A stretch of 64,000 nt of DNA from an uncultured Clostridia bacterium (GTDB lineage: Bacteria; Bacillota; Clostridia; Christensenellales; DTU072). This document shows positions 20,331 to 37,558 of the stretch, piece by piece. The stretch lies in the NCBI GenBank assembly GCA_944349655.1, contig CALVNL010000004.1, positions 8,819 to 72,818 of the forward strand, given 5' to 3'. The stretch's first letter is position 1, and each line of letters opens with the position of its first letter. The position numbers and the translations under genes were made by a program. Below the pieces are notes generated by a model, which was not told where the DNA came from, made no database searches, and was given only the letters and a program-made list of their open reading frames with translations.

Positions 20331-20644
20331 AGCAAGATCGCGAGGGAATATATATCGTCGAAAAAGATTTTTTCGTTACCTAACACGAGATATTTGAGGG
20401 GGAAGTTGAGTTCGGAGACTTCCCCTTCTATTTCCGGGTAATGTCCGTCGAGGAAAAACGTAATTCGGATTTTCGTACCTTTGGTAAGACGGAGTAAAGT
20501 AGAGGAAATTTCTTCTTTCCGCTCTTCGGAAAGTAGGCGCTTCGGTTGTCGGGTGCGGCGTTCTTCCCGCTTCCGGAGTTCCTCTTGTAAGCCTTTGAGC
20601 GAGTCGAATGGCAAGAATTGCTTTGCACGGTCGGTTTTATTCAC
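20327..20644 (-). CDS. yolD: YolD-like protein
   Basis: RAKQFLPFDSLKG N-terminus and a small beta-rich C-terminal part. Overlaps the Y-family polymerase gene by 8 nt, the usual pairing. Confidence 0.75.
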   Translation of the reverse strand: MNKTDRAKQFLPFDSLKGLQEELRKREERRTRQPKRLLSEERKEEISSTLLRLTKGTKIRITFFLDGHYPEIEGEVSELNFPLKYLVLGNEKIFFDDIYSLAILL

Positions 20645-21908
20645 CGTTGTGTCCCCCTATCAGGCGGTTCCGTTCGGCGGCGGTGGCTCCGTCGCAAAAA
20701 TCCATTCCCCGTAAAACGGCGTTTTTCCCGAAACGGGTCTTGAGTCCGAGGACGGTTTTTTCCGCTTCCTTTTCCTTGCGGATTTTTTCAAAGTCGGTAA
20801 ACAGATCGTAGGTTTCGTTCGAGACGGAGGAAACCGAATTGAAAGTTATGCCTAAACGCCTTATGGGCAGATTTTTGTCCGCCTTTTCGCTGAATAATCG
20901 GCTGACATAAGGGGCGATTGCCGAAAAAACGTTGGTTTTTACCGTCATTTTTACGGTGCCGCCGTCCGACAAGCCCGAAAAATCCGAATAACCTATATAT
21001 ATTCCGACGGAATCGGTGACTACGTTCCGTTTCATCATTTCCTGACATCCGGCAAGGAGCATTTCGTCCATTACCAAAGCGGCTTTTTCGTAATCGTAGT
21101 CCGAAGGAAGAATTTGCGAAAAAGAAACGGATCTTGACTTCGATTTATAGTTTTTTATATCGGCAAGAGTACAGCTTTCCCGTCCGTAAGCGTGGTCGAT
21201 AAGCAGTTCGGCGTTGACGCCGAAAACTTTGTACAAAAGTTCCTCCGAGGTTTCGGCAATACCCTTCATATCGAAAATACCGTATTTGGACAGCCGTGCC
21301 GAGATTCCCGAGGAGATCTGCCAGAAGTCGCTCAAAGGACGGTGCGTCCATAGGGTTTTTTTGTAAAGGTCTTCGTCGAGAAAACCTATGCCGTCCTTGG
21401 TTTTCTTTGCGGTCAGGTCGAGAGCGATTTTGGCAAGATACAAATTCGTGCCGATACCGCAGGTGGCGGGGATACGCTTGTTTTTTGCAATTTCGGCAAG
21501 GAGGAATTTAGCGAATTCATAGGGCGTTTTACGGTATAAACCGAGATAATCCGTCACGTCGAGAAAAGACTCGTCTATGGAATAAACGTGTATGTCGGAA
21601 GGGGACAGGTATTCCAGATAAACGTCGTAGATGTCTGCGGCGTAATCGATATATTTTTTCATACGGGGTTTTGCCACGATATATTTTATCGAAGAGGGAA
21701 TTTCCGAAAGACGGCAGCGGTTTTTTACGCCCAAAGACTTGAGGTGCGGGGAAACGGCGAGACAGAGGGCGTTTTTGCCCCTGGTTTCGTCGGCGACGAC
21801 GAGCGGCGTTTCGAACGGGTTAAGTCCGCGCTCCACGCACTCCACCGAAGCGTAAAAACATTTCATATCGATACAAAAATATATCCGTTGTTTTTCCGTC
21901 ATAGACAA
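20637..21908 (-). CDS. Y-family (UmuC/UvrX/DinB-like) translesion DNA polymerase
   Basis: IYFCIDMKCFYASVE and YSIDESFLDVT catalytic motifs. 423 aa. Confidence 0.9.
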   Translation of the reverse strand: MSMTEKQRIYFCIDMKCFYASVECVERGLNPFETPLVVADETRGKNALCLAVSPHLKSLGVKNRCRLSEIPSSIKYIVAKPRMKKYIDYAADIYDVYLEYLSPSDIHVYSIDESFLDVTDYLGLYRKTPYEFAKFLLAEIAKNKRIPATCGIGTNLYLAKIALDLTAKKTKDGIGFLDEDLYKKTLWTHRPLSDFWQISSGISARLSKYGIFDMKGIAETSEELLYKVFGVNAELLIDHAYGRESCTLADIKNYKSKSRSVSFSQILPSDYDYEKAALVMDEMLLAGCQEMMKRNVVTDSVGIYIGYSDFSGLSDGGTVKMTVKTNVFSAIAPYVSRLFSEKADKNLPIRRLGITFNSVSSVSNETYDLFTDFEKIRKEKEAEKTVLGLKTRFGKNAVLRGMDFCDGATAAERNRLIGGHNGE

Positions 21909-22513
21909 AGACTTTTAATTACTTTTATAGCGATGCCCTGGATTTCCACGTCTTTATATAACATATCTTCGTAGGACGGGTTTTCGGCTTTCAGGCGGAT
22001 AAGGCGGTTTTCGGAGTCTTTATAATACCTTTTCAGTGTAACTTCTTCTCCGTCGCACAGCGCTACGACTATATCGCCGTCGGAAGCGGAAGATTGCACC
22101 TTGACGATAACGATATCGCCGTTGGCTATTCCTGCGCCCGTCATACTGTCGCCGTTGGCTTTCAATGCAAAAAACTTACCTTTCCCCAAAATTTTGGAGG
22201 AAATATCGAGGTATGTTTCCACGTTTTCTTCGCAAAGCAAAGGTTTCCCGCAGGACACGCTTCCGAGAAGCGGAGTCCTTACGACGTCGTCGATAGCTTT
22301 GACCATACGTTCGCTTTTTATACACCGACGGCCGTTTTCGTCCGCAAGCAAACCCGATTTTTTCATTTCCGCAATATAACGATGGAGATTTCCGGGATCC
22401 AATCCCAACGCGAAAGCGATTTCCCTTTCCGAAGGGAAACGGTTTTCTTCGAAATAACATTTTTCGATAAAGTCTTTTATGCGAGCATATCTCGCTTCGG
22501 CTTTTTCTCGCAC
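21899..22513 (-). CDS. lexA: LexA-type repressor (wHTH + S24 peptidase)
   Basis: The C-terminal domain carries GDSM (Ser nucleophile) and a VTLKRYY Lys region. The N-terminal domain has SEREIAFALGLD..NLHRYIAEMKKSGLL. A Cys-Gly (SCGKP) replaces the usual Ala-Gly cleavage site. GTG at 22513 has GGAGG 5 nt upstream; the ORF-track start at 22525 lies within that RBS. Confidence 0.85.
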   Translation of the reverse strand: MREKAEARYARIKDFIEKCYFEENRFPSEREIAFALGLDPGNLHRYIAEMKKSGLLADENGRRCIKSERMVKAIDDVVRTPLLGSVSCGKPLLCEENVETYLDISSKILGKGKFFALKANGDSMTGAGIANGDIVIVKVQSSASDGDIVVALCDGEEVTLKRYYKDSENRLIRLKAENPSYEDMLYKDVEIQGIAIKVIKSLCL

Positions 22514-22527
22514 GGCTACCTCCACAA

Positions 22528-27876: not shown

Positions 27877-27922
27877 GCAAACAAAAAACCCCGTTGAATG
27901 GGGTTTTCGCTTGCTTTTTTTT
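27877..27922. terminator. Bidirectional terminator at the end of the R-M operon; copy A of a hairpin repeat family
   Basis: GCAAACAAAAAACCCC-gttgaat-GGGGTTTTCGCTTGC followed by T8. The left arm and loop are near-identical to the copies at 36750 and 36947. Confidence 0.7.
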
Positions 27923-27967: not shown

Positions 27968-29656
27968 TTAAAGATTCATAGAAGTAATAAACTCCGTAAT
28001 GCTTTTATACACTTCGTCATCCAAATTCGTATATTCTACTAAAACTTTATTTACCCATTCAGGACCATGTCCACCTACTTCTTTTATAAAACATTCTAAC
28101 TCGCCTACAGGTACGATATATACGCCATGCTCTTTTAGCAATCCATCAATTCTTCGGAAAGAACTGGTTGCGTCTGCTGGTGGTAAAGCTGATATTCCAG
28201 ATGATTTCAATGTTTTCCACTTGGAAATTGTAGAAACCGCTTCCTTAATGGTTTCACTTTCTTTATTAGATAAAATCTTGCTTGTTGATGAATCCAAAAC
28301 TTGATTTATTGTAATTTTCGCTGTAGTTCTATCTATCTTTTCTTTAGGACTATGCAAATTGCTTACAATTTTATTATAATCCGTTTTAATACTATCATAA
28401 TCTACTGCATATGCTTCAACAATACCTTTAAAGAGCTCTTCATCATTTAAAACATCAATGTCTACGATAGTTGTAACTGGCACATTCAATGAGCGCAGCG
28501 CTTGAATAATTTTAGACATACGGTGTTTGCCGCCGCAATGAATAAACAAAGTTTCAGAATACTTCTGTTGCTTTTGCTTGATATGGCTTTCAATTATTGA
28601 ATACATCTTACAATCAGAATCACTTTCACAAAGAACAACCGATTTGTGGAAAAGACTTGCCATAATATTAGAGTATTTTAATAACGGATCACTCCAAACC
28701 CTATTGAAATCTGCATTATTTAAGATCGAAAAGTGATTAATATTTCCGTCTCGAGTAATTCTGACTATTTTAATTCTTTCGGGGCAAGAATCCAACAATC
28801 CTTTTATAATTTCTTCACTATGGGTTGAAATAAATGCTTGTTGTTTATCTGACAATGTTTGCCCTATAATTTGCCCCATAATTCTCGCTTGCGGAGGATG
28901 AAGAAACGATTCTGGCTCATCAATCAGATAAATTCTGTAATAATCCAGCATTAAATACAGCAAAATGCCGGTGAAGCTTTTTATTCCATCTCCTTGATTT
29001 TGAACCTGATCATAGGTCTCAAGAATTTTTGCAAATGCTTCTTGACGAGTTATTTCGTCATCGAAATTACCATCCAAAACAAAATTTTTGCCTATGCATA
29101 GAGGAATTGCTGCACCATAAAATGTATTAGGTGTTAAATCTTGCCCGAAAGCCTTTTTAAAATTGTCAGACAACCATTTTCTATATTTACCGTCAAAAGC
29201 TGCATAATGTATTGGATGACTTTTATTCTCGTCTCTTCTGATGTTCTGTGGTGCCGAGCAAATAGTTAATCGTGCTGAAGTATCTAAATTAGCCACAAAT
29301 AAATCACGAAAATTATCAAAATATGGGGACGATTGAAATCTTTGGTCTGTAAAATTAAAAACATTCATATGATGTCCAAAAACATTATATGATATATGAT
29401 CTCCATTATGAATTCCTTTTGAAACGCAAGATAATGCAGACGATATCGGCGTTGAAGATTTTGTGATTGTTATATTTGATATCACCACACTTGGCACTTT
29501 TTTCGCAGAAAGTGCGTATACATCTTTTAAAGCTTGGCTTTTACCTGCATTATTTGGACCGACAAAAACCACTATATCATTTTCCGATATATCCAAGTTT
29601 TGACCATTATTAAACTGTATTTGAGAAATAAATCCCCCTGCTTTTTCTTCAGACAT
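27968..29656 (-). CDS. ABC-type ATPase fused to a TOPRIM/DUF4435-like nuclease domain (OLD-family class 1 / fused PARIS AriA-AriB-like)
   Basis: Walker A GPNNAGKS (33-40), signature-like GDGIKS (222-227), Walker B YLIDEPE (243-249), H-loop STHS. Then VVLCESDSD (Glu) and IVDIDVLND (DxD) as in TOPRIM, and a C-terminal GVYIVPVGELECFI block. Confidence 0.7.
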   Translation of the reverse strand: MSEEKAGGFISQIQFNNGQNLDISENDIVVFVGPNNAGKSQALKDVYALSAKKVPSVVISNITITKSSTPISSALSCVSKGIHNGDHISYNVFGHHMNVFNFTDQRFQSSPYFDNFRDLFVANLDTSARLTICSAPQNIRRDENKSHPIHYAAFDGKYRKWLSDNFKKAFGQDLTPNTFYGAAIPLCIGKNFVLDGNFDDEITRQEAFAKILETYDQVQNQGDGIKSFTGILLYLMLDYYRIYLIDEPESFLHPPQARIMGQIIGQTLSDKQQAFISTHSEEIIKGLLDSCPERIKIVRITRDGNINHFSILNNADFNRVWSDPLLKYSNIMASLFHKSVVLCESDSDCKMYSIIESHIKQKQQKYSETLFIHCGGKHRMSKIIQALRSLNVPVTTIVDIDVLNDEELFKGIVEAYAVDYDSIKTDYNKIVSNLHSPKEKIDRTTAKITINQVLDSSTSKILSNKESETIKEAVSTISKWKTLKSSGISALPPADATSSFRRIDGLLKEHGVYIVPVGELECFIKEVGGHGPEWVNKVLVEYTNLDDEVYKSITEFITSMNL

Positions 29657-29674: not shown

Positions 29675-31096
29675 TTAGTATTTCAATTCATCGCACAGGG
29701 CGAGAAGTTCTTCGACTCGTTTGACGATGCGTTTTTGCTCGGCAAGCGGTGGCAAAGGAAGCAATAAGTGTTTTAGTTTATCTGCCTTGATACCTTTCGC
29801 AGTAGCACCCGTACAATTATCAAGGAGTTGCTGTTGGAATTGTGGTGATAATATAAAATACATAAACAAAGCAGGAACTACAGTTTCTTTTTCATATTCT
29901 TTCAAAGTAATAACTCTTTGTCCACAAGAACATTCGTCTAAATCACATAATGCTACGTTCCCCATAGGAGCTTCAGTGGTGAATAACAAATCACCATGTT
30001 CTGTTATTCCACGACTTTTCCTCTCGGAATATTCTTTTTTGGATATGTACTCTTTTCTTGAATAATCCATATAAGCTCGCTTAATATTTGATGCTGTAAT
30101 CAAAAATATACCTTGGGAAATTTTATTTGGTGTTTTTCCCCGATAATCAACAAAGTCAAATAGTTGATTAAGTTCCACCATTATCCAAGAATTGGGTATT
30201 TCAAAGTTCATAGCAGACAGATTAAGTTCGCTTTTACACGGTTTGATTTTGCTATGATGCTTTTTCAATTTTTGAACAATATCAGCACTTAACCCTTCTT
30301 CATTGTGCTGATTTACAAGTTTACCTTGTACTGCTTGTTGCAAAATCGACTTGCGGAGCTTATCCGGGAATTCGGCATTTAATTTGTTTAACTGTTCTTC
30401 TGCCTTGCCGTATTCCTCAATCAAAGGCATCAATTCTTCGATTTTTGCAACAATTCGCTTTTGTTCCGCAAGAGGAGGAATAGGGATAGGCGTATTTTTT
30501 AGAATTGTGAGGTTTATATTCATCTGCGCCATTCCTTTTCCTTTTGACACAAGAATGTCCTTCAAACCAATCAAAACATAATACATGTAATCGCGACTAT
30601 ATTCACCGAAAAATGTTACACCTGCGACAGCTTGATTTGTGGCTGCATCAATATTCAATATCCCAACCGTTCCTATTGTAGCAAAAATAGTATATAAAAT
30701 AGTTCCTTTGGGAAAAATCTTTGCTGATGATGAATTCAATCCTTGTTCAGAAATTTTTTCTTCTGTTGTGGAAATATATTTATTTCTGATATCTCCGATT
30801 TTTACCCACGGGATATTACCATTCCAAAATGATGAATTAGTGCGCGCTGGCGTACCACCGGAAGTAATTGAAGAAATATCATTTAGACGAACCCATTCCC
30901 AACTTTCAGGAATATCAAAAGGAATTTCATCTTCTGATATTGCAGGTAACGATTTTTCTTTTATCCCGAGTTTCTGTTTTTCGGCACGAATATGTTTCAG
31001 CAATTCCAATGCCGGTTCGTCATCTTTGCATTGCGGCACAAGTTTCCCCTGTACCGCCAACTGCAAAATGGAGTTTTTCAATTCCTGCGCGGTCAT
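29675..31096 (-). CDS. hsdS: Type I restriction-modification specificity subunit
   Basis: Two variable TRDs. They are separated by the conserved helices PPLAEQKRIVAKIEELMPLIEEY (central) and PPLAEQKRIVKRVEELLALCDEL (C-terminal). 4-nt overlap with hsdM. Confidence 0.9.
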   Translation of the reverse strand: MTAQELKNSILQLAVQGKLVPQCKDDEPALELLKHIRAEKQKLGIKEKSLPAISEDEIPFDIPESWEWVRLNDISSITSGGTPARTNSSFWNGNIPWVKIGDIRNKYISTTEEKISEQGLNSSSAKIFPKGTILYTIFATIGTVGILNIDAATNQAVAGVTFFGEYSRDYMYYVLIGLKDILVSKGKGMAQMNINLTILKNTPIPIPPLAEQKRIVAKIEELMPLIEEYGKAEEQLNKLNAEFPDKLRKSILQQAVQGKLVNQHNEEGLSADIVQKLKKHHSKIKPCKSELNLSAMNFEIPNSWIMVELNQLFDFVDYRGKTPNKISQGIFLITASNIKRAYMDYSRKEYISKKEYSERKSRGITEHGDLLFTTEAPMGNVALCDLDECSCGQRVITLKEYEKETVVPALFMYFILSPQFQQQLLDNCTGATAKGIKADKLKHLLLPLPPLAEQKRIVKRVEELLALCDELKY

Positions 31097-32541
31097 TCGT
31101 TGCCCTCCAATTTTGCGGTGATACTTGCCAAGATGCGGTCTATTGCGGTATTCAGTTCGGTGCGCTCCGCTTCATAGTGGGCAATCAGATCTTTCGGCTC
31201 GAGAATTTCTTCTTCCGTATGCGGGAAAGGACAGCATTTATCGAAATCATAGTTCAGTGCTTCCAATTCTTCGGGCGTATAGAAGCGTGCTTTGTCAAAA
31301 CCGTCAACAATAATGGCTTGTTTGTTGGCCCACCACTCACGCACAGGGTCAAAGTGCTTGTCCAGCATGGGTTTTGTTTTGGAAAAACTCTTTACGCCTT
31401 CGGGATAGTCAAGGCGGTAAAACCATACACCGCGGCTGACAACGCCTTTTTTGAAGAACAAAAGATTGGTGTTGACGCTGGCATAAGGTTTAAACACCTG
31501 CGGCAAACGTATGATTGTATGTAAGCCGTATTCTTTTAGAAGCTTCTCTTTAATCGTGTTCTTTACGCCGTCGCCAAACATAAAACCGTCGGGCAAGACG
31601 ACGCCTGCTCTGCCGCCGTCTTTAAGCAGATTCATAATGAGCGCCATAAACAGATCCGCCGTTTCGCTGGTTTGCAATTCGCTCGGAAAGTTTTTCTTGA
31701 CTGCGGCGTCTTCCGCTCCGCCGAAAGGGGGATTAGCGACTATCACATCCACACGATCTTTTGCCGAATAATCGGAAAGAGGTCTGTTCAAAGAATTGAT
31801 GTGTTTTATTCTCGGTATCTCGATGTCATGCAAAATCAAGTTTGTCATGGCAAGAAGATAGGGAAGGGGCTTTTTCTCCCAACCGCTAATAGAAATCTGA
31901 AGCTTTTCGAGTTCTTCAGTCGTCGTAACGCTGCCGATATGCGCAATAGTGCTGGTCAAAAAACCACCCGTGCCACAAGCGGGGTCGAGGACGGTTTCTC
32001 CGAGTTTAGGATCGACCTTTTCGACGATGAAATTCGTAACGGGTCGAGGCGTATAAAATTCACCCGCTCGCCCTGCGCTCTGTAAATCTTTCAGCATACC
32101 TTCATAGAGGTCATTGAAAGTATGTTTCTGTGTTGCGTCGATAAAATCCACCTTCTCATTGATGCGGTTGACAAGCTGACGGAGATAAACGCCCGATTTC
32201 ATATAGTTGTTGATGTCTTCAAACACGTTACGGACAACGAATTTGCGCATATCGCCGTCGGACGTATCTATCTTTTTGAGTTTATCAAACAGTTCGTCTA
32301 TAAATTTGATGAGAGCGTCGCCGGTAATTCCTTCTTTGTCCGCCGCCCAATCGCGCCAGCGGTAACCCTGAGGAATGACGCCTTTATAGTCCGGACGGAA
32401 CTCCCATTCCATTTCTTTGGCGTCAAACGCTTTCAAAAACAAAAGCCAGGTGATCTGTTCGATATACTGTGCATCGCCGTTCAAGCCTGCGTCTTTACGC
32501 ATTATATCTTCCAGCGATTTTATCATAGTGGACATTGCCAT
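31093..32541 (-). CDS. hsdM: Type I restriction-modification N6-adenine DNA methyltransferase subunit
   Basis: Motif I VLDPACGTGGFL and motif IV VIVANPPFGG. The N-terminal HsdM_N-like region has ITWLLFLKAFD. Confidence 0.92.
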   Translation of the reverse strand: MAMSTMIKSLEDIMRKDAGLNGDAQYIEQITWLLFLKAFDAKEMEWEFRPDYKGVIPQGYRWRDWAADKEGITGDALIKFIDELFDKLKKIDTSDGDMRKFVVRNVFEDINNYMKSGVYLRQLVNRINEKVDFIDATQKHTFNDLYEGMLKDLQSAGRAGEFYTPRPVTNFIVEKVDPKLGETVLDPACGTGGFLTSTIAHIGSVTTTEELEKLQISISGWEKKPLPYLLAMTNLILHDIEIPRIKHINSLNRPLSDYSAKDRVDVIVANPPFGGAEDAAVKKNFPSELQTSETADLFMALIMNLLKDGGRAGVVLPDGFMFGDGVKNTIKEKLLKEYGLHTIIRLPQVFKPYASVNTNLLFFKKGVVSRGVWFYRLDYPEGVKSFSKTKPMLDKHFDPVREWWANKQAIIVDGFDKARFYTPEELEALNYDFDKCCPFPHTEEEILEPKDLIAHYEAERTELNTAIDRILASITAKLEGNE

Positions 32542-32553
32542 AGTATGTACTCC

Positions 32554-34230
32554 TTATTTTCTCTTTTCCGATGAATAAACTTCTTTATGGTCACCGCAAG
32601 AACCGACTATTATTTTTTTATCCTTATCGGAAAATCCAAAGTGGATGCTTTGTTTTTTCTGGGCATAGGTTATATGCGCTTCTATATTGATGCTTTCGCC
32701 GTTATAATCAGTCACAAATTGGCGCATAAGTTTTGCATCAGCTCTTGTCATGGACCCTTCACCACGCGTCGCTTTAATACCTGTTTGCATTTTAAATTCT
32801 TTATAGATGTCTCCACCTTTTGTAAAATACAAATCCCACATTACGGTTGATAAAGCAAAAAAAGCTTTCCAAAGTTCAGACAAGTCTATAGTGCAAGTTT
32901 TTAATGTTTTTCTTGCATCATCCGTAAATTGAATTTTATCTCCGAAAGTTGCTTCAAAATAATTTACTATGTCATTACACGTTTTCGGATAATTTTTAAT
33001 GTCCAATCTACTTAAAGTGGCTTTCCTTAATGCAGCATTTTCTTGTGCAAAAGACCGATAACTTTCATTTTGTTGTGTAAGACTATAATTTTCATCTTTT
33101 AGGTTAATAAGTTCTACTTTTAAACGATCTCTTTCAGCTTCTGCTATAAGTTTTTTTTCTTCTTCCTCCATCGCCAAGCTTATAGATTCGTTTTCGACTT
33201 CTTTCAGTTTTTTTTGATGTGTAGATTGAAGCTCCTTTAATCTCTTTTGCCTAATATTAGCTTCTACCTTTGCCCGACAATCATCTATGCGGAAAAATTT
33301 ATCGTAAGCAGTCATATCTTGAGCAAGGGCTCGACGCAGTATTTGACAAACGGCATTTTCCCCAATTGTTTCAATTCGATCAGGGTGAAAATATCTATGA
33401 CGGGTATAGTCTAATTCGTCAGTTGGCTTTACACCCGGATAATAAATGCGAATCATTCCATTGTAGCAAGCTAATTCTTGGGGGGTGAAGAAATTCATTT
33501 CATCTGTTACTGCTTTGCTTGTGGCATAAAATACAAGCGCATTTCCACCTACAGCTTTTGCTATATTTTCCGGGTTTACATACAAACAATCCGTTTCGCT
33601 CAAAGAACTATTTTTCGGGCTAATATAAATATAAGGGATATTTCTTTCTTCACTTTGGAGTTTTTCCCAAAAATTCATCCAACCGCCGTCTCCTATTTTT
33701 TGAGGCGATATAGAGATTCTATCGACACCGCAATAACATTCGATTAATTTATCATCTACTACTTTCTTTATTAATCCTGGAATATTTGGTAAAGGCATAG
33801 GTTCAAACTCCCCGATGAAGCCCGGTCTATCGCTATACGATATAACGCAAGAGAAATACGCTTTATTCTCATCGATGGGCTCATACCCGACTTCCGTAAC
33901 CCATCTTCTGGGGGCGAATCCGTTTTCAGAAAACGGCGTCTCGATTATTTGGCAAGCCCAGTATATATTATTCTTTGCAGGTTCTGGCACATAACATACG
34001 GCAGAGGATATTGTAACTGTTCTGTTGTCAAAAGATGAGATTGTTCCGCCCTTTTTTAAGCTACTCCAATCTTTTGCATCATCTGAAAGGAGTTTTTCTT
34101 TTTTATTCCATTTATTTGTTTGCCAATTTTTGATATGACAAACTAAACGCCAAAGTAAATCTTGTTCGGGGGCTTGCAGAGAAAGCATGAATCTAACCTT
34201 ATAAAATATAGTTGAATTTAAATCAATCAT
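32554..34230 (-). CDS. Uncharacterised 558-aa protein embedded between hsdR and hsdM (N-domain / coiled coil / C-domain)
   Basis: Long uninterrupted ORF with AAGGAG upstream. Its TAA stop lies inside the hsdM RBS (TAAGGAG). No P-loop or nuclease motif recognised. Residues ~318-405 are a Glu/Lys/Leu heptad-rich coiled coil. Confidence 0.7.
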   Translation of the reverse strand: MIDLNSTIFYKVRFMLSLQAPEQDLLWRLVCHIKNWQTNKWNKKEKLLSDDAKDWSSLKKGGTISSFDNRTVTISSAVCYVPEPAKNNIYWACQIIETPFSENGFAPRRWVTEVGYEPIDENKAYFSCVISYSDRPGFIGEFEPMPLPNIPGLIKKVVDDKLIECYCGVDRISISPQKIGDGGWMNFWEKLQSEERNIPYIYISPKNSSLSETDCLYVNPENIAKAVGGNALVFYATSKAVTDEMNFFTPQELACYNGMIRIYYPGVKPTDELDYTRHRYFHPDRIETIGENAVCQILRRALAQDMTAYDKFFRIDDCRAKVEANIRQKRLKELQSTHQKKLKEVENESISLAMEEEEKKLIAEAERDRLKVELINLKDENYSLTQQNESYRSFAQENAALRKATLSRLDIKNYPKTCNDIVNYFEATFGDKIQFTDDARKTLKTCTIDLSELWKAFFALSTVMWDLYFTKGGDIYKEFKMQTGIKATRGEGSMTRADAKLMRQFVTDYNGESINIEAHITYAQKKQSIHFGFSDKDKKIIVGSCGDHKEVYSSEKRK

Positions 34231-34253
34231 CTTCTTCAGTACTCCTTAAATTA

Positions 34254-36572
34254 TTATGCCGCGTAGATAGCCCTTTCTAATTCTCTGATAGCTTCACGGA
34301 ATTTTGCTATCCCGCCGAAAATGGTATTCACAATATAAACTTGTGTTCCGTATTGCTTAATCGGTTCAACCTTCAAAACGTCCACGTTTTCAAGGTCAGT
34401 CAGACCGCTATCGGCATACTTCGTCAAAAGTGCATCCAAAATCTCTGCGGCTTGCTTTCCGTATTTGGTAAAGTAATTGTGTTTACGGACATTTTCGGCT
34501 CGCTCTTTTCTTGTCAGCGGCGGTTGGTCGAATACGATATGCAAAATCAAATCAAACGGGTCTAAATCCTTACTGACTTCGTCACACAAGTCATCAAAGA
34601 ACACACCGCGTTTTTCAAGCTCGTCAACGATTGCTTGTTTGCGCTCTGCCGCATTCCAAGCCGCAAGAAAATCGTTCATCTCCGCATACTGGCTCAATAC
34701 GTTTCGCTTTGTATAATCGATAAGACGTTCGGTAATCAGATGACCGTTTTTATCAAGATATTGCACATGCTTTTGAGAGACAGAAACCTGAGTGTCGCCG
34801 AGAACGTATTTTTGTCTTCTTTCGCGTTCCGGAGGCGTAATTTCAGGAGGCCTTTCAGGTCCTTCTCCGGGTTTATTCGGATGAAAATCGTCTTGCTGCT
34901 CAATCGGACCGTCAAAATCAGGATCATGGAAAAGGCGTGTAACATCGCGGAAGTCGAAAATCGTAAAGTACATTTTTCCGAGGTCTTCCCGGACACGTGT
35001 GCCGCGACCGATAATCTGTTTGAATTCGGTCATGGATCTGATATTGGAATCCAGCACAATAAACTTAACCGTCTGAACGTCAACGCCTGTGGAAAGCAAT
35101 TTGGAAGTCGTAACAAGCACGGGATATTCTTTTTCAACATTTCTGAAATTATCAAGTTGCTTGACGCCTGCTTCGTCATTTGCCGTAATACGCATAACAT
35201 AACGGGAATCTAACGCACACATATCCGCATTTTCATTTACCAATGCTTGACGCATACGGTCTGCGTGCTCCTGATCGACACAGAAGAATATTGTCTTATC
35301 CATTCTGCAATCGTGCTTTTTAAGATAGTCGGAGACGGTCTTTGCAACGAGTTTTGTTCGTTTTTCGAGAACGAGATTTTTATCAAAATCAGTCGTGTTG
35401 TAAACTCGGTTGTCGATGACTTCACCGTTGTCGTCAAGCTGACCTTCATAAGGAACAAAACCCTCGATGTCTTTATCAAAAAACACTCGAATGACACGAT
35501 ACGGGGCTAAGAATCCGTCGTCTATACCTTGTTTCAAAGAATACGTATAGATTGGCTCGCCGAAATAATCAATATTGGAAACAGTATTTGTTTCTTTCGG
35601 CGTTGCGGTAAGCCCTACCTGCGTGGCAGAGGAAAAATACTCCAATACTTCACGCCATTGACTGTCAGCTTTTGCGCTACCCCGGTGACACTCGTCAACG
35701 ACAACTAAATCGAAGAACCCCGGACTGAATTGCTTAAACAAACTGTTGGCATCTTCGTCTTCTCCTGTCAACCCCTGATAAAGGGCAAGATATATCTCAT
35801 GAGCCGTATCAATGTTTTGTTTTGTTACCCACGTCATCTTATCCTTAAACGGAGCAAAATCATTGGTAAAAGTCTGCGCAATCAACGCCGTTCTGTCGGC
35901 AAGGAAAAGAATGCGCTTTTTAAGACCCGCTTTCCAAAGTCGCCAAATAATCTGAAAAGCAGTATAAGTTTTACCAGTGCCTGTTGCCATAACAAGCAAG
36001 ACTCTGTTTTGCCCCTTTGCAATAGCTTCAACGGTTTTGTTGATTGCGTTCATCTGATAATAGCGCGGCTGCTTATCGGGATTATCAGAGTAGTACGGCT
36101 CATCAATAACAGTATCTTGCACCTTGCTGATATTGTTTTGTTCGTGATACATTTTCCATAAAGTTTCCGGTGACGGAAATTCATTCAAAGAAAGATTTAT
36201 CTCGGCAGGTCCTTCGGTAATGAACTTGTTATGAAAAACAAAACCGTCACCGTTTGAAGAAAACACGAACGGAACATTCATCATATCGGCATATTGCAAC
36301 GCTTGTTGCATACCGTCTGCCATAGTATGGTTATTGTCTTTGGCTTCAATAACAGCTATCGGTTTATTCGGTTTGTAAAAAAGAACATAATCCGCTTTCA
36401 AAGGGGCTTCTCGTTTGCAGACTTTCCCACGGGCGATAATTCTGCCATTCGTAATTTTATATTCCTCACGTATTTGTGAAAATAAACTCCAACCGGCAGA
36501 AACGATTGCAGGCGTAATGAATTTTGTCCTTATATCCATTTCAGATAAAGATTTTTTATCGTAAGAATTCAT
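34254..36572 (-). CDS. hsdR: Type I restriction endonuclease/translocase subunit
   Basis: N-terminal PD-(D/E)xK (DYVLF...VIEAKD). SF2 motif I MATGTGKT and motif II VVDECHR. The ATG at 36572 has GGGAGAG upstream; the ORF-track start at 36587 is a TTG inside the RBS. Confidence 0.9.
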   Translation of the reverse strand: MNSYDKKSLSEMDIRTKFITPAIVSAGWSLFSQIREEYKITNGRIIARGKVCKREAPLKADYVLFYKPNKPIAVIEAKDNNHTMADGMQQALQYADMMNVPFVFSSNGDGFVFHNKFITEGPAEINLSLNEFPSPETLWKMYHEQNNISKVQDTVIDEPYYSDNPDKQPRYYQMNAINKTVEAIAKGQNRVLLVMATGTGKTYTAFQIIWRLWKAGLKKRILFLADRTALIAQTFTNDFAPFKDKMTWVTKQNIDTAHEIYLALYQGLTGEDEDANSLFKQFSPGFFDLVVVDECHRGSAKADSQWREVLEYFSSATQVGLTATPKETNTVSNIDYFGEPIYTYSLKQGIDDGFLAPYRVIRVFFDKDIEGFVPYEGQLDDNGEVIDNRVYNTTDFDKNLVLEKRTKLVAKTVSDYLKKHDCRMDKTIFFCVDQEHADRMRQALVNENADMCALDSRYVMRITANDEAGVKQLDNFRNVEKEYPVLVTTSKLLSTGVDVQTVKFIVLDSNIRSMTEFKQIIGRGTRVREDLGKMYFTIFDFRDVTRLFHDPDFDGPIEQQDDFHPNKPGEGPERPPEITPPERERRQKYVLGDTQVSVSQKHVQYLDKNGHLITERLIDYTKRNVLSQYAEMNDFLAAWNAAERKQAIVDELEKRGVFFDDLCDEVSKDLDPFDLILHIVFDQPPLTRKERAENVRKHNYFTKYGKQAAEILDALLTKYADSGLTDLENVDVLKVEPIKQYGTQVYIVNTIFGGIAKFREAIRELERAIYAA

Positions 36573-36749
36573 ATTCTCTCCCTTCAAGCGTGAAATCCTA
36601 ATATATTTAAATTAAGAATTTAATCTTTTACCAAAATATATTTTGATATTATAAATTATATATTTTATATAAATAGTTTTCAAGCATATATTAATAAAAG
36701 ATAAAAATAGATATGCCCGATGCTTGTCAATTTAAATATATCATTATAT

Positions 36750-36807
36750 AAACAAAAACCCCGTTGAAGGGGTCGTTTTGTTTGTATTGGCGTTCCCGGC
36801 GGGAGTC
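36750..36807 (-). repeat. Direct repeat copy B: terminator hairpin plus the last ~20 nt of tRNA-Arg (att-like remnant)
   Basis: 58 nt differing from 36947-37005 only by one A in the A-run and one G/A substitution. It diverges exactly after ...CGGCGGGAGTC. Confidence 0.8.
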
Positions 36808-36946
36808 CCTCGCACTCTCGCTATCGCTCGCCGACGGGCCTGGGCGGTATGACAGCATACTATGCTGTCAACTACGACGGCAATGCTCTTTGAATTTTCT
36901 TGTGCCGTCTATCCGCCCGTTCGACTCCCTGAATAATCTCGTATGC
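36808..36946. other. 139-bp spacer with nested inverted repeats between the two att-like copies
   Basis: GGGAGTC (36801-07) pairs with GACTCCC (36923-29). GGGCGG (36842-47) pairs with CCGCCC (36913-18). GACAGCATA-c-TATGCTGTC lies at 36851-69. GACGGCA (36876-82) pairs with TGCCGTC (36903-09). Confidence 0.4.
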
Positions 36947-37005
36947 AAACAAAAAACCCCATTGAAGGGGTCGTTTTGTTTGTATTGGCGTTCCCGGCGG
37001 GAGTC
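36947..37005 (-). repeat. Direct repeat copy C: tRNA-Arg 3' end plus its terminator hairpin
   Basis: Partner of 36750-36807. The hairpin CAAACAAAAAACCCC-attgaa-GGGGTCGTTTTGTTTG serves as the tRNA terminator on the - strand. Confidence 0.8.
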
Positions 37006-37120: not shown

Positions 37121-37183
37121 GAGAATACGCTTTTTTACACTTAGCTCTTCTCCCGCATCGTAGGAAAATTTAGCTTTTCGGAA

Positions 37184-37212
37184 TTGACACGAAGTACGTT
37201 TCGTTGTATAAT
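37184..37212 (+). promoter_or_regulatory. Consensus sigma-A promoter for the ferredoxin gene
   Basis: TTGACA (37184-89), 17-nt spacer, TATAAT (37207-12). Confidence 0.7.
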
Positions 37213-37245
37213 GAAGAAAACCAAAATATAAGGAGATTGATTATT

Positions 37246-37416
37246 ATGGCATATGTAATTAACGATACTTGCATCAGCTGCGGTTCCTGTGAAGGCGAAT
37301 GCCCCGTTAGCGCTATCAGCGCAGGCGACGGAAAATACGTCATCAACGCCGACGAATGCATAAGCTGCGGTTCCTGCGCCAGCGTTTGCCCCCAGGAAGC
37401 TATCAGCGAAGAATAA
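37246..37416 (+). CDS. fdx: 2x[4Fe-4S] clostridial-type ferredoxin (56 aa)
   Basis: AAGGAGA RBS. Two CxxCxxCxxxCP motifs (CISCGSCEGECP and CISCGSCASVCP). Confidence 0.92.
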   Translation: MAYVINDTCISCGSCEGECPVSAISAGDGKYVINADECISCGSCASVCPQEAISEE

Positions 37417-37440
37417 TTTTTCTTTTTCAAAAATCGGAAA

Positions 37441-37467
37441 AAGACCGTTTTACGACGGTCTTTTTTC
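37441..37467 (+). terminator. Intrinsic terminator after the ferredoxin gene
   Basis: AAGACCGT-tttacg-ACGGTCTT followed by a T-run. Confidence 0.75.
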
Positions 37468-37558
37468 ATTTGCTCCCGAATGAAGAAATATTTTTTTTAT
37501 CGAGAAAAATTTATTGCGGTAAATTCTTGACAACCTTTTTAATATAATGTATTATTAA

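Follow-up and report, generated by a model that had tools for sequence, protein, structure and literature searches.

In a 64,000-nucleotide stretch of DNA from an uncultured Clostridia bacterium (contig CALVNL010000004.1; the whole stretch is hereafter called the window), a block of five genes on the minus strand has the order hsdR, an open reading frame (ORF) of 558 codons that we call ORF558, hsdM, hsdS and an OLD-family ATPase-TOPRIM gene. ORF558 (32554..34230, minus strand; ATG start, 558 aa plus stop) had been singled out from the sequence alone, in what we call the original prediction, as an unrecognisable protein wedged between type I restriction-modification (R-M) genes and as a candidate new restriction-linked defence component. 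Our analysis confirmed the ORF as real and the general guess of a defence role as right. On the other hand, ORF558 is a distant Clostridia-lineage member of HEC-07, an already catalogued and experimentally supported family, and not a new kind of system.

With regard to the neighbours, hsdR (34254..36572, minus) encodes an EcoAI/EcoEI-type type I restriction subunit, which was recognised by NCBIfam NF046051 (1120 bits) and by the Pfam families ResIII, EcoEI_R_C and HSDR_N. We take the ATG at 36572 as its start, which gives 772 aa, the length that its homologues also have; the program-made ORF list begins it at a TTG at 36587. Upstream of hsdR is a sigma-70-like promoter candidate (TTGAAA-17-TATAAT; 36655..36683, minus), a pattern match only, with 11 of 12 positions agreeing in a consensus scan. 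On the other side of ORF558, hsdM (31093..32541, minus) encodes a type I N6-adenine methyltransferase (Pfam N6_Mtase, E = 2e-61, and HsdM_N; PADLOC MTase_I, E = 5e-188) and overlaps by 4 nt with hsdS for the specificity subunit (29675..31096, minus; two stretches of Pfam Methylase_S; PADLOC Specificity_I, E = 3e-129). The last gene, for an OLD-family ABC ATPase-TOPRIM nuclease (27968..29656, minus; Pfam AAA_21, AAA_15 and OLD-like_TOPRIM; PADLOC Old, E = 4e-23), is a second defence cargo of the block, which is closed by a bidirectional terminator-like hairpin at 27884..27908 found in a terminator scan.

The junctions on both sides of ORF558 are tight. As the original prediction stated and the sequence confirms, 23 nt (34231..34253, minus) separate the hsdR stop from the ATG of ORF558, and this spacer contains ORF558's own Shine-Dalgarno sequence AAGGAG (TTTAAGGAGTACTGAAGAAG then ATG). 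At the opposite end (32542..32556, minus), TAAGGAGTACATACT is followed by the ATG of hsdM, and the TAA of ORF558 lies inside the hsdM Shine-Dalgarno sequence, again as had been described; the junction reads TAAGGAGtacatactATG. The embedding of a defence-type gene in a type I R-M operon and its co-transcription with the R-M genes are supported. The gene is also more AT-rich than hsdM, as had been suspected (GC content 0.361 versus 0.466, with 0.423 for hsdR), and GC at the third codon position (GC3) is 0.29 in ORF558 versus 0.42-0.53 in hsdR and hsdM (0.53 in hsdM). The 10-mer TAAGGAGTAC stands at both ends of ORF558 in the window (34239-34248 and 32547-32556, minus), which looks like a duplicated junction from insertion or exchange of a cassette.

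Family membership and domain architecture of ORF558

No family in Pfam-A, NCBIfam or PHROGs matched ORF558 significantly, and Pfam gave nothing either for the tested HEC-07 protein. The family is already present in PADLOC-DB v2 as HEC-07, so the description as unrecognisable did not hold: the model PDLC04161 matched residues 89-548 of ORF558 against profile positions 90-547 of 553 (E = 1.4e-28, 98 bits), and two further HEC-07 models, PDLC04160 and PDLC04159, likewise matched it. The HEC-07 model also matches homologues of ORF558, whether solo or embedded, and on PDLC04161 the tested protein (P0121) reaches 740 bits. The first search returned over 150 homologues, and the family profile matched 6884, 4426 and 1445 clusters of 50% identity at E <= 1e-3, 1e-10 and 1e-30, respectively. 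A chance ORF is ruled out by these hundreds of homologues.

HEC-07, for Hma-embedded candidate 07, was described as a single-gene system repeatedly nested in Hma defence operons and was selected by 'guilt-by-embedding', an approach that its authors extend to type I R-M, BREX and DISARM, with HECs among the embedded genes (Payne, Hughes, Fineran & Jackson, 2024; bioRxiv 10.1101/2024.01.29.577857). The representative from Pseudomonas aeruginosa NCTC13717, WP_033943166.1 (= P0121), defended E. coli when cloned alone; coliphage plaquing was lowered by seven of the nine tested candidates, only HEC-01 and HEC-09 failing (Payne et al., 2024). Novelty of the component therefore has to be given up, since the family was described and single-gene phage protection was shown in E. 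coli.

The relationship of ORF558 to P0121 is distant. BLASTP against the full protein (549 aa) aligned 337 residues at 23% identity (ORF558 residues 90-406, E = 5e-8); the identity is put at about 18-23%, and the two proteins align end to end. Because BLASTP fell short of the C-terminal domain, we compared profiles of that domain between the Clostridia and Pseudomonas clades by hhalign, which gave a probability of 92.9% (E = 3.8e-7, 139 columns), paired G-E491-G with TG(D/E)G and matched both histidines. Moreover, joint MAFFT alignments of three clades (Clostridia, Proteobacteria and an intermediate clade of Ignavibacteriales, Nitrospinales and Gammaproteobacteria metagenome-assembled genomes) were colinear, with W36, W91, R108, W110, R196, P415, H519, G543 and H548 invariant. 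Of these, H548 is the counterpart of H543 in P0121 and is invariant in all alignments, H519 being the second invariant histidine.

ORF558 and P0121 are of the same length class (558 and 549 aa) and share a colinear three-part architecture, the motif RxWxTE[IV]G, the residues W36, W91, R108, W110, R196, H519 and H548 (= H543), and a RelE/HP0892-like C-terminal domain; both are single genes that occur embedded in multi-gene defence operons and also solo. They differ in host (Firmicutes/Clostridia for ORF558 versus Proteobacteria), in the embedding system (the type I R-M hsdR-hsdM junction versus Hma) and in the C-terminal motifs, which are RGEGxMTR and GxCGxH in the ORF558 clade versus TGDG and GWLPSH in that of P0121. 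Two minor observations concern the borders of the family. A 45% identical homologue (P0061) carries a precomputed PF28159.1, which is absent from the Pfam version used here, and a newer release may cover part of the family. Two other members, P0466 (909 aa, with the HEC-07 region at 388-909) and L091 (a 1446-aa ORF), have apparent large N-terminal extensions or fusions.

The full-length AlphaFold2 model of ORF558 has a mean predicted local distance difference test score (pLDDT) of 84 and bears out the three segments that had been proposed from the sequence, namely two globular domains up to about residue 310, long helices (315-342 and 350-410) and a compact C-terminal domain (418-548). The N-terminal beta-sheet/helix domain (about residues 1-145; 33796..34230, minus), delimited by the secondary structure of the model, contains the invariant W36, W91, R108 and W110 and the family motif RxWxTE[IV]G, and is presumed to be the infection sensor. 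The middle alpha/beta domain (about residues 150-310; 33301..33783, minus) has the invariant R196 and a conserved RH(R) at 277-279. The Glu/Lys/Leu-rich long helices (33001..33288, minus), seen by DSSP on the model and in the composition of residues 318-405, form a coiled-coil linker. The HEC-07 hidden Markov model (HMM) and the alignments span both N-terminal domains colinearly. For HEC-07, Payne et al. (2024) describe an AdoMetDC-like part, a thioredoxin-like part without CxxC and a RelE-family, HP0892-like part with a conserved H543. Foldseek against viral predicted structures (BFVD) returned nothing meaningful for ORF558. In agreement with the original prediction, a motif scan detected no Walker A motif and no HNH-like spacing; the maximum 19-residue Kyte-Doolittle mean is 0.99, and ORF558 therefore has no transmembrane helix, as had also been claimed.

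The C-terminal part (residues 418-548; 32587..32979, minus) is a predicted RelE/YafQ-like RNase domain of the BECR superfamily, on the agreement of the domain model, Foldseek, hhalign and PADLOC NsnC. A separate AlphaFold2 model of residues 408-558 has a pLDDT of 84 and a predicted template modelling score of 0.81. When this model was compared with the Protein Data Bank (PDB) by Foldseek, most of the top 25 matches were RelE-superfamily toxins (RelE, YoeB, HigB2, HP0892 and ParE). The top ones were RelE2 3g5o_B (probability 0.95, template modelling score on the target (TMt) 0.53) and YoeB 7v5y_E (TMt 0.57), and HP0892 (2otr, TMt 0.54; 4ltt, TMt 0.48), the archaeal RelE 1wmi, HigB2 and E. coli RelE were also matched. 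These matches are consistent with one another and include HP0892, the structure used by Payne et al. Similarly, PADLOC models for NsnC, the effector of the Menshen system, matched residues 366-551 with E = 3.2e-12. This fits the same assignment, because NsnC's C-terminal domains are described as YafQ-like RNases of the BECR superfamily with an H-R-H triad (Li et al., 2025; PMC12065111). The original prediction had seen no nuclease-type motif; this part has to be corrected, as the domain is unrecognisable by eye and was missed.

The candidate catalytic residues are E491 (codon 32758-32760), H519 (32674-32676) and H548 (32587-32589), all on the minus strand. YoeB and YafQ likewise have a histidine beside the C-terminus, namely H83 and H87, respectively. 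By analogy, the acid and two histidines of ORF558, one of them near the C-terminus, would match the acid-base arrangement of YoeB and YafQ, and their conservation across clades with less than 20% identity is a pattern to be expected of such a site. RelE, YoeB, YafQ, HigB and HP0892 resemble residues ~418-548 in predicted fold. In contrast, these type II toxins are free-standing proteins of about 90 aa with a separate antitoxin, whereas the domain of ORF558 is the tail of a 558-aa protein, and similarity to them is not detectable at the sequence level. A type II RelE/ParE module was rejected for ORF558: here a 410-residue N-terminal region precedes the domain in the same protein, and there is no antitoxin gene, for which the operon leaves no room because hsdR and hsdM flank ORF558 with spacers of 23 nt and 12 nt.

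Other known systems were also compared. PrrC with EcoprrI, and RloC, are alike in that an RNA-cutting effector, predicted for ORF558, is encoded among type I R-M genes and could serve as a second defence line, and for PrrC the dependence on the R-M enzyme is documented. They differ in having an ABC-ATPase head and a distinct anticodon-nuclease domain where ORF558 has a RelE-like domain. Membership of this group was rejected, as ORF558 has no P-loop; the original prediction had already noted likeness to neither protein, which agrees with the missing Walker A and the lack of any ATPase match in Pfam, NCBIfam and PADLOC. Menshen NsnC shares a terminal BECR-superfamily RNase domain with conserved histidines, and is a protein of about 300 aa with an inactive-PIN N-terminus and the partners NsnA (ParB-DUF262) and NsnB (ABC ATPase-DUF3696) (Li et al., 2025). 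ORF558 differs from it in its N-terminal domains and in lacking NsnA and NsnB partners, though the downstream OLD-like gene resembles NsnB weakly via its ATPase. Assignment to Menshen NsnABC was therefore rejected, since only residues 366-551 of ORF558 match NsnC and the N-terminal 365 residues do not, and the operon has no ParB/DUF262 gene. Among nuclease types, the only regular-expression match to the all-alpha HEPN family (Rx4-6H) is R277-H282 in a loop of the middle domain, with H282 not among the conserved columns, and PD-(D/E)xK gave loose pattern matches only; both were discarded. A role as an R-M regulator or C-protein was likewise set aside, as Pfam and NCBIfam gave no helix-turn-helix family match.

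Occupied and empty operons and the distribution of homologues

To compare occupied and empty operons, we denote by X the position of ORF558 or its homologue. In the lineage of the window, the order hsdR-X-hsdM-hsdS is kept while the ORF558 homologues are 46-79% identical, beside 87-95% for HsdR and 90-96% for HsdM. Close relatives of HsdM led us to sister operons that are empty at this position: in L127-L129, HsdR and HsdM are 86% and 90% identical to those of the window, and in L130-L131 both are 86% identical. In these operons hsdR abuts hsdM, with the hsdR stop in the same hsdM leader gcgTAAGGAGaactcactATG, and at the junctions of L127-L131 this stop lies inside the hsdM Shine-Dalgarno sequence (TAAGGAGaactcactATG). 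The stop-in-Shine-Dalgarno junction is therefore a feature of the hsdM leader and not of ORF558, because the hsdR stop fills the same TAAGGAG in the empty operons. Separate acquisition of the gene, as originally suggested, is supported by its low GC, by its identity of 46-79% beside 87-96% for HsdR/HsdM and by the sister operons without it. From these comparisons, ORF558 is an optional, fast-evolving and compositionally foreign cassette in a recombination-prone hsdR-hsdM junction. A similar case is DarTG2 between hsdS and hsdR in enteropathogenic E. coli, where an R-M junction is also an insertion/recombination hotspot for an independent defence cassette, though the slot (hsdS-hsdR) is different and the proteins are unrelated (PMC12255303).

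Scans of genome, viral and metagenome contigs gave 116 context-unbiased loci. These were dereplicated at 85% identity, and 54 of the resulting clusters had a full-length homologue with one neighbour or more. An hsd gene was directly adjacent on the same strand in six of the 54 clusters, the order hsdR-X-hsdM was present in four, and an hsd gene was within four genes in nine; these counts should be read as minima, since the Hsd HMMs derive from the Hsd proteins of the window. Adjacency to hsd is thus far above chance for a gene family, yet clearly a minority. It is seen again in distant clades and beside other HsdR types, namely in L013 (29% identity to ORF558), L092 (33%) and L019 (45%). Elsewhere, a homologue of 46% identity is solo, with thrS on one side and housekeeping genes on the other; a second is part of a defence island close to a ubiquitin-like system, and a gene identical to the tested Pseudomonas HEC-07 adjoins an integrase. 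With six of 54 clusters adjacent to hsd and one homologue alone among housekeeping genes, a restriction link in the functional sense, as had been proposed, is not supported. The solo occurrence of homologues is consistent with autonomy, as far as gene neighbourhoods can tell. In tblastn searches, plasmids gave three Bradyrhizobium megaplasmids (25% identity) and phage records gave one unannotated 6.8-kb fragment (30% identity), so the HEC-07-like family is not typically plasmid- or phage-borne in the collections searched.

Variation is also seen at other positions of these operons. After hsdS, an OLD-family gene is present in the window, L001 and L125 (78-86% identical, GC 0.34), genes for AbiTii, DUF3800 and a SLFN-like helicase in L127, and genes for DUF6173 and DUF3800 in L130 and L027; L026 has a pair of AAA_21 and RloB genes about 2.3 kb further downstream. 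At the other end, an HTH_26 gene of 73-76 aa overlaps the hsdR start in L027, L028, L127, L128, L130 and L131. It recalls the small R-M-proximal repressor RptR (PMC12255303), and the window has no ORF of at least 60 aa at that position.

Proposed mode of action and alternative explanations

We consider that ORF558 is probably a single-protein anti-phage cassette of the HEC-07 type, in which an N-terminal sensor, a coiled coil and a C-terminal RelE/YafQ-like RNase would act together in abortive infection, and that it presumably behaves like the tested member. In this mechanism, the RNase domain would be held inactive within the same polypeptide until a phage-derived cue, sensed by the N-terminal half with its invariant Trp/Arg around RxWxTE[IV]G, frees it. 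The coiled coil may pass on the signal or oligomerise the protein. The freed RelE/YafQ-like domain would cut RNA, probably ribosome-bound mRNA by analogy to RelE, YoeB, YafQ and HigB, and the resulting translation arrest would abort infection in cells whose restriction barrier was passed. Because sister operons lack the gene and many homologues are solo, the optional cassette is most likely an autonomous RNase-based abortive-infection protein.

Several points weigh against this explanation. The RelE-fold matches in Foldseek have weak E-values (1.1e-2 at best), and the profile of the C-terminal domain, compared with all PDB chains, found no RelE relative and only a chance match to SRP54 (E = 0.86). 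For the N-terminal half, the PDB matches of the full-length model in Foldseek were weak Bet v1/START-like ones (E >= 2.5e-3, TMt ~0.3), which we regard as no more than a lead, and 3C6K and 3VFI, the structures for the published N-terminal folds, are not in the top 50. The identity of ORF558 to the tested HEC-07 is only ~18-23%, and the preprint contains no demonstration of RNase activity or active-site mutant of HEC-07 (bioRxiv 10.1101/2024.01.29.577857). Moreover, every occupied operon in the closest lineage keeps the R-X-M-S position and the tight junctions down to 46% identity, a pattern that would be equally in line with a functional link between ORF558 and the R-M enzyme.

This last point leads to a guard like PrrC, in which ORF558 is bound and kept latent by HsdR/HsdM/HsdS, depends on the flanking genes for its function, and fires its RNase only when an anti-restriction protein such as Ocr, ArdA or a Stp-like one disables or remodels the R-M complex. 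The persistence of the position, the short spacer and the stop-in-Shine-Dalgarno junction while X diverges to 46% identity argues for it, and stoichiometric co-expression is favoured because the R-X-M-S position and tight junctions persist in the window lineage. An RNase effector inside a type I R-M operon would also follow the logic of PrrC/EcoprrI, and distant clades and other HsdR types again show hsd adjacency (L013, L092 and L019). We nevertheless regard such a guard as rather unlikely: Pseudomonas HEC-07 protected E. coli alone, without a host system, 48 of the 54 homologue clusters have no hsd neighbour and some are solo among housekeeping genes, the same R-M operon occurs without X, and the stop-in-Shine-Dalgarno junction belongs to the hsdM leader. 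A version confined to the Clostridia lineage, where the HEC-07-like protein would act not autonomously but as a PrrC-style sentinel in physical association with the EcoAI-type R-M complex, seems to us somewhat more doubtful still; here a RelE-like ribosome-dependent RNase could be latent on HsdM/HsdS/HsdR and be freed by phage anti-restriction attack. If true, it would be a second, structurally unrelated way of 'guarding' type I R-M and would give the HEC-07 family its first trigger and mechanism.

Two other explanations were considered. As the RelE-superfamily fold is the classical type II toxin fold, ORF558 might be a fused toxin for addiction or stress, namely a growth-arresting RelE-like toxin with the N-terminal half as a covalent antitoxin and no phage sensor, which stabilises the R-M island or responds to starvation or DNA damage. 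The absence of a separate antitoxin gene fits a fused arrangement, and the block looks like a mobile island with low GC and bracketing repeats. On the other hand, the family was picked by its embedding in defence systems and the tested member lowered plaquing, X diverges faster than the genes beside it, as is typical in an arms race, and the conserved N-terminal region with its invariant Trp/Arg is far larger than any antitoxin, so that we judge this explanation improbable. The weak E-values for the RelE fold, with the canonical RelE arginine/lysine set not obvious, could instead indicate an inactive RelE-like module that acts by binding ribosomes or nucleic acids or by modulating restriction or modification by the R-M enzyme. 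This is highly improbable in our view, since even clades less than 20% identical retain the acidic residue and the two histidines, unchanged or with conservative replacement, and the related NsnC effector domains keep an H-R-H triad.

An autonomous HEC-07-type cassette as the preferred explanation has several implications. ORF558 is an example that 'guilt-by-embedding' holds in gut Clostridia. The EcoAI-type R-M junction is empty in some strains and filled with fast-diverging HEC-07 variants in others, and a second variable cargo slot follows hsdS. The alignment across clades with less than 20% identity leaves one acid and two histidines as the candidate catalytic residues of HEC-07, and a few Trp/Arg positions as candidates for the sensor. 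For genome annotation, Pfam, NCBIfam and PHROGs are blind to a family with more than 1000 clusters at 50% identity.

Other features of the window

The low-GC R-M block of about 9 kb is flanked by a hairpin-containing repeat, GCAAACAAAAAACCCCrTTGAAkGGGG, at 27877-27902, 36747-36772 and 36945-36970, of which a 54-nt version is doubled upstream of hsdR (36754-36807 and 36952-37005, 198 nt apart). These repeats could be terminator or REP-like (repetitive extragenic palindromic) elements, or island boundaries. Further upstream of the block, a 55-nt direct repeat of 75% identity (37270-37411) lies within a 99-aa ORF (37170-37469, minus) and by eye recalls the pair of cluster motifs in a 2x[4Fe-4S] ferredoxin. 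Elsewhere in the window, adjacent ORFs at 20637-22525 (minus) resemble by eye a LexA-like S24 repressor (208 aa) and a Y-family DNA polymerase (423 aa).

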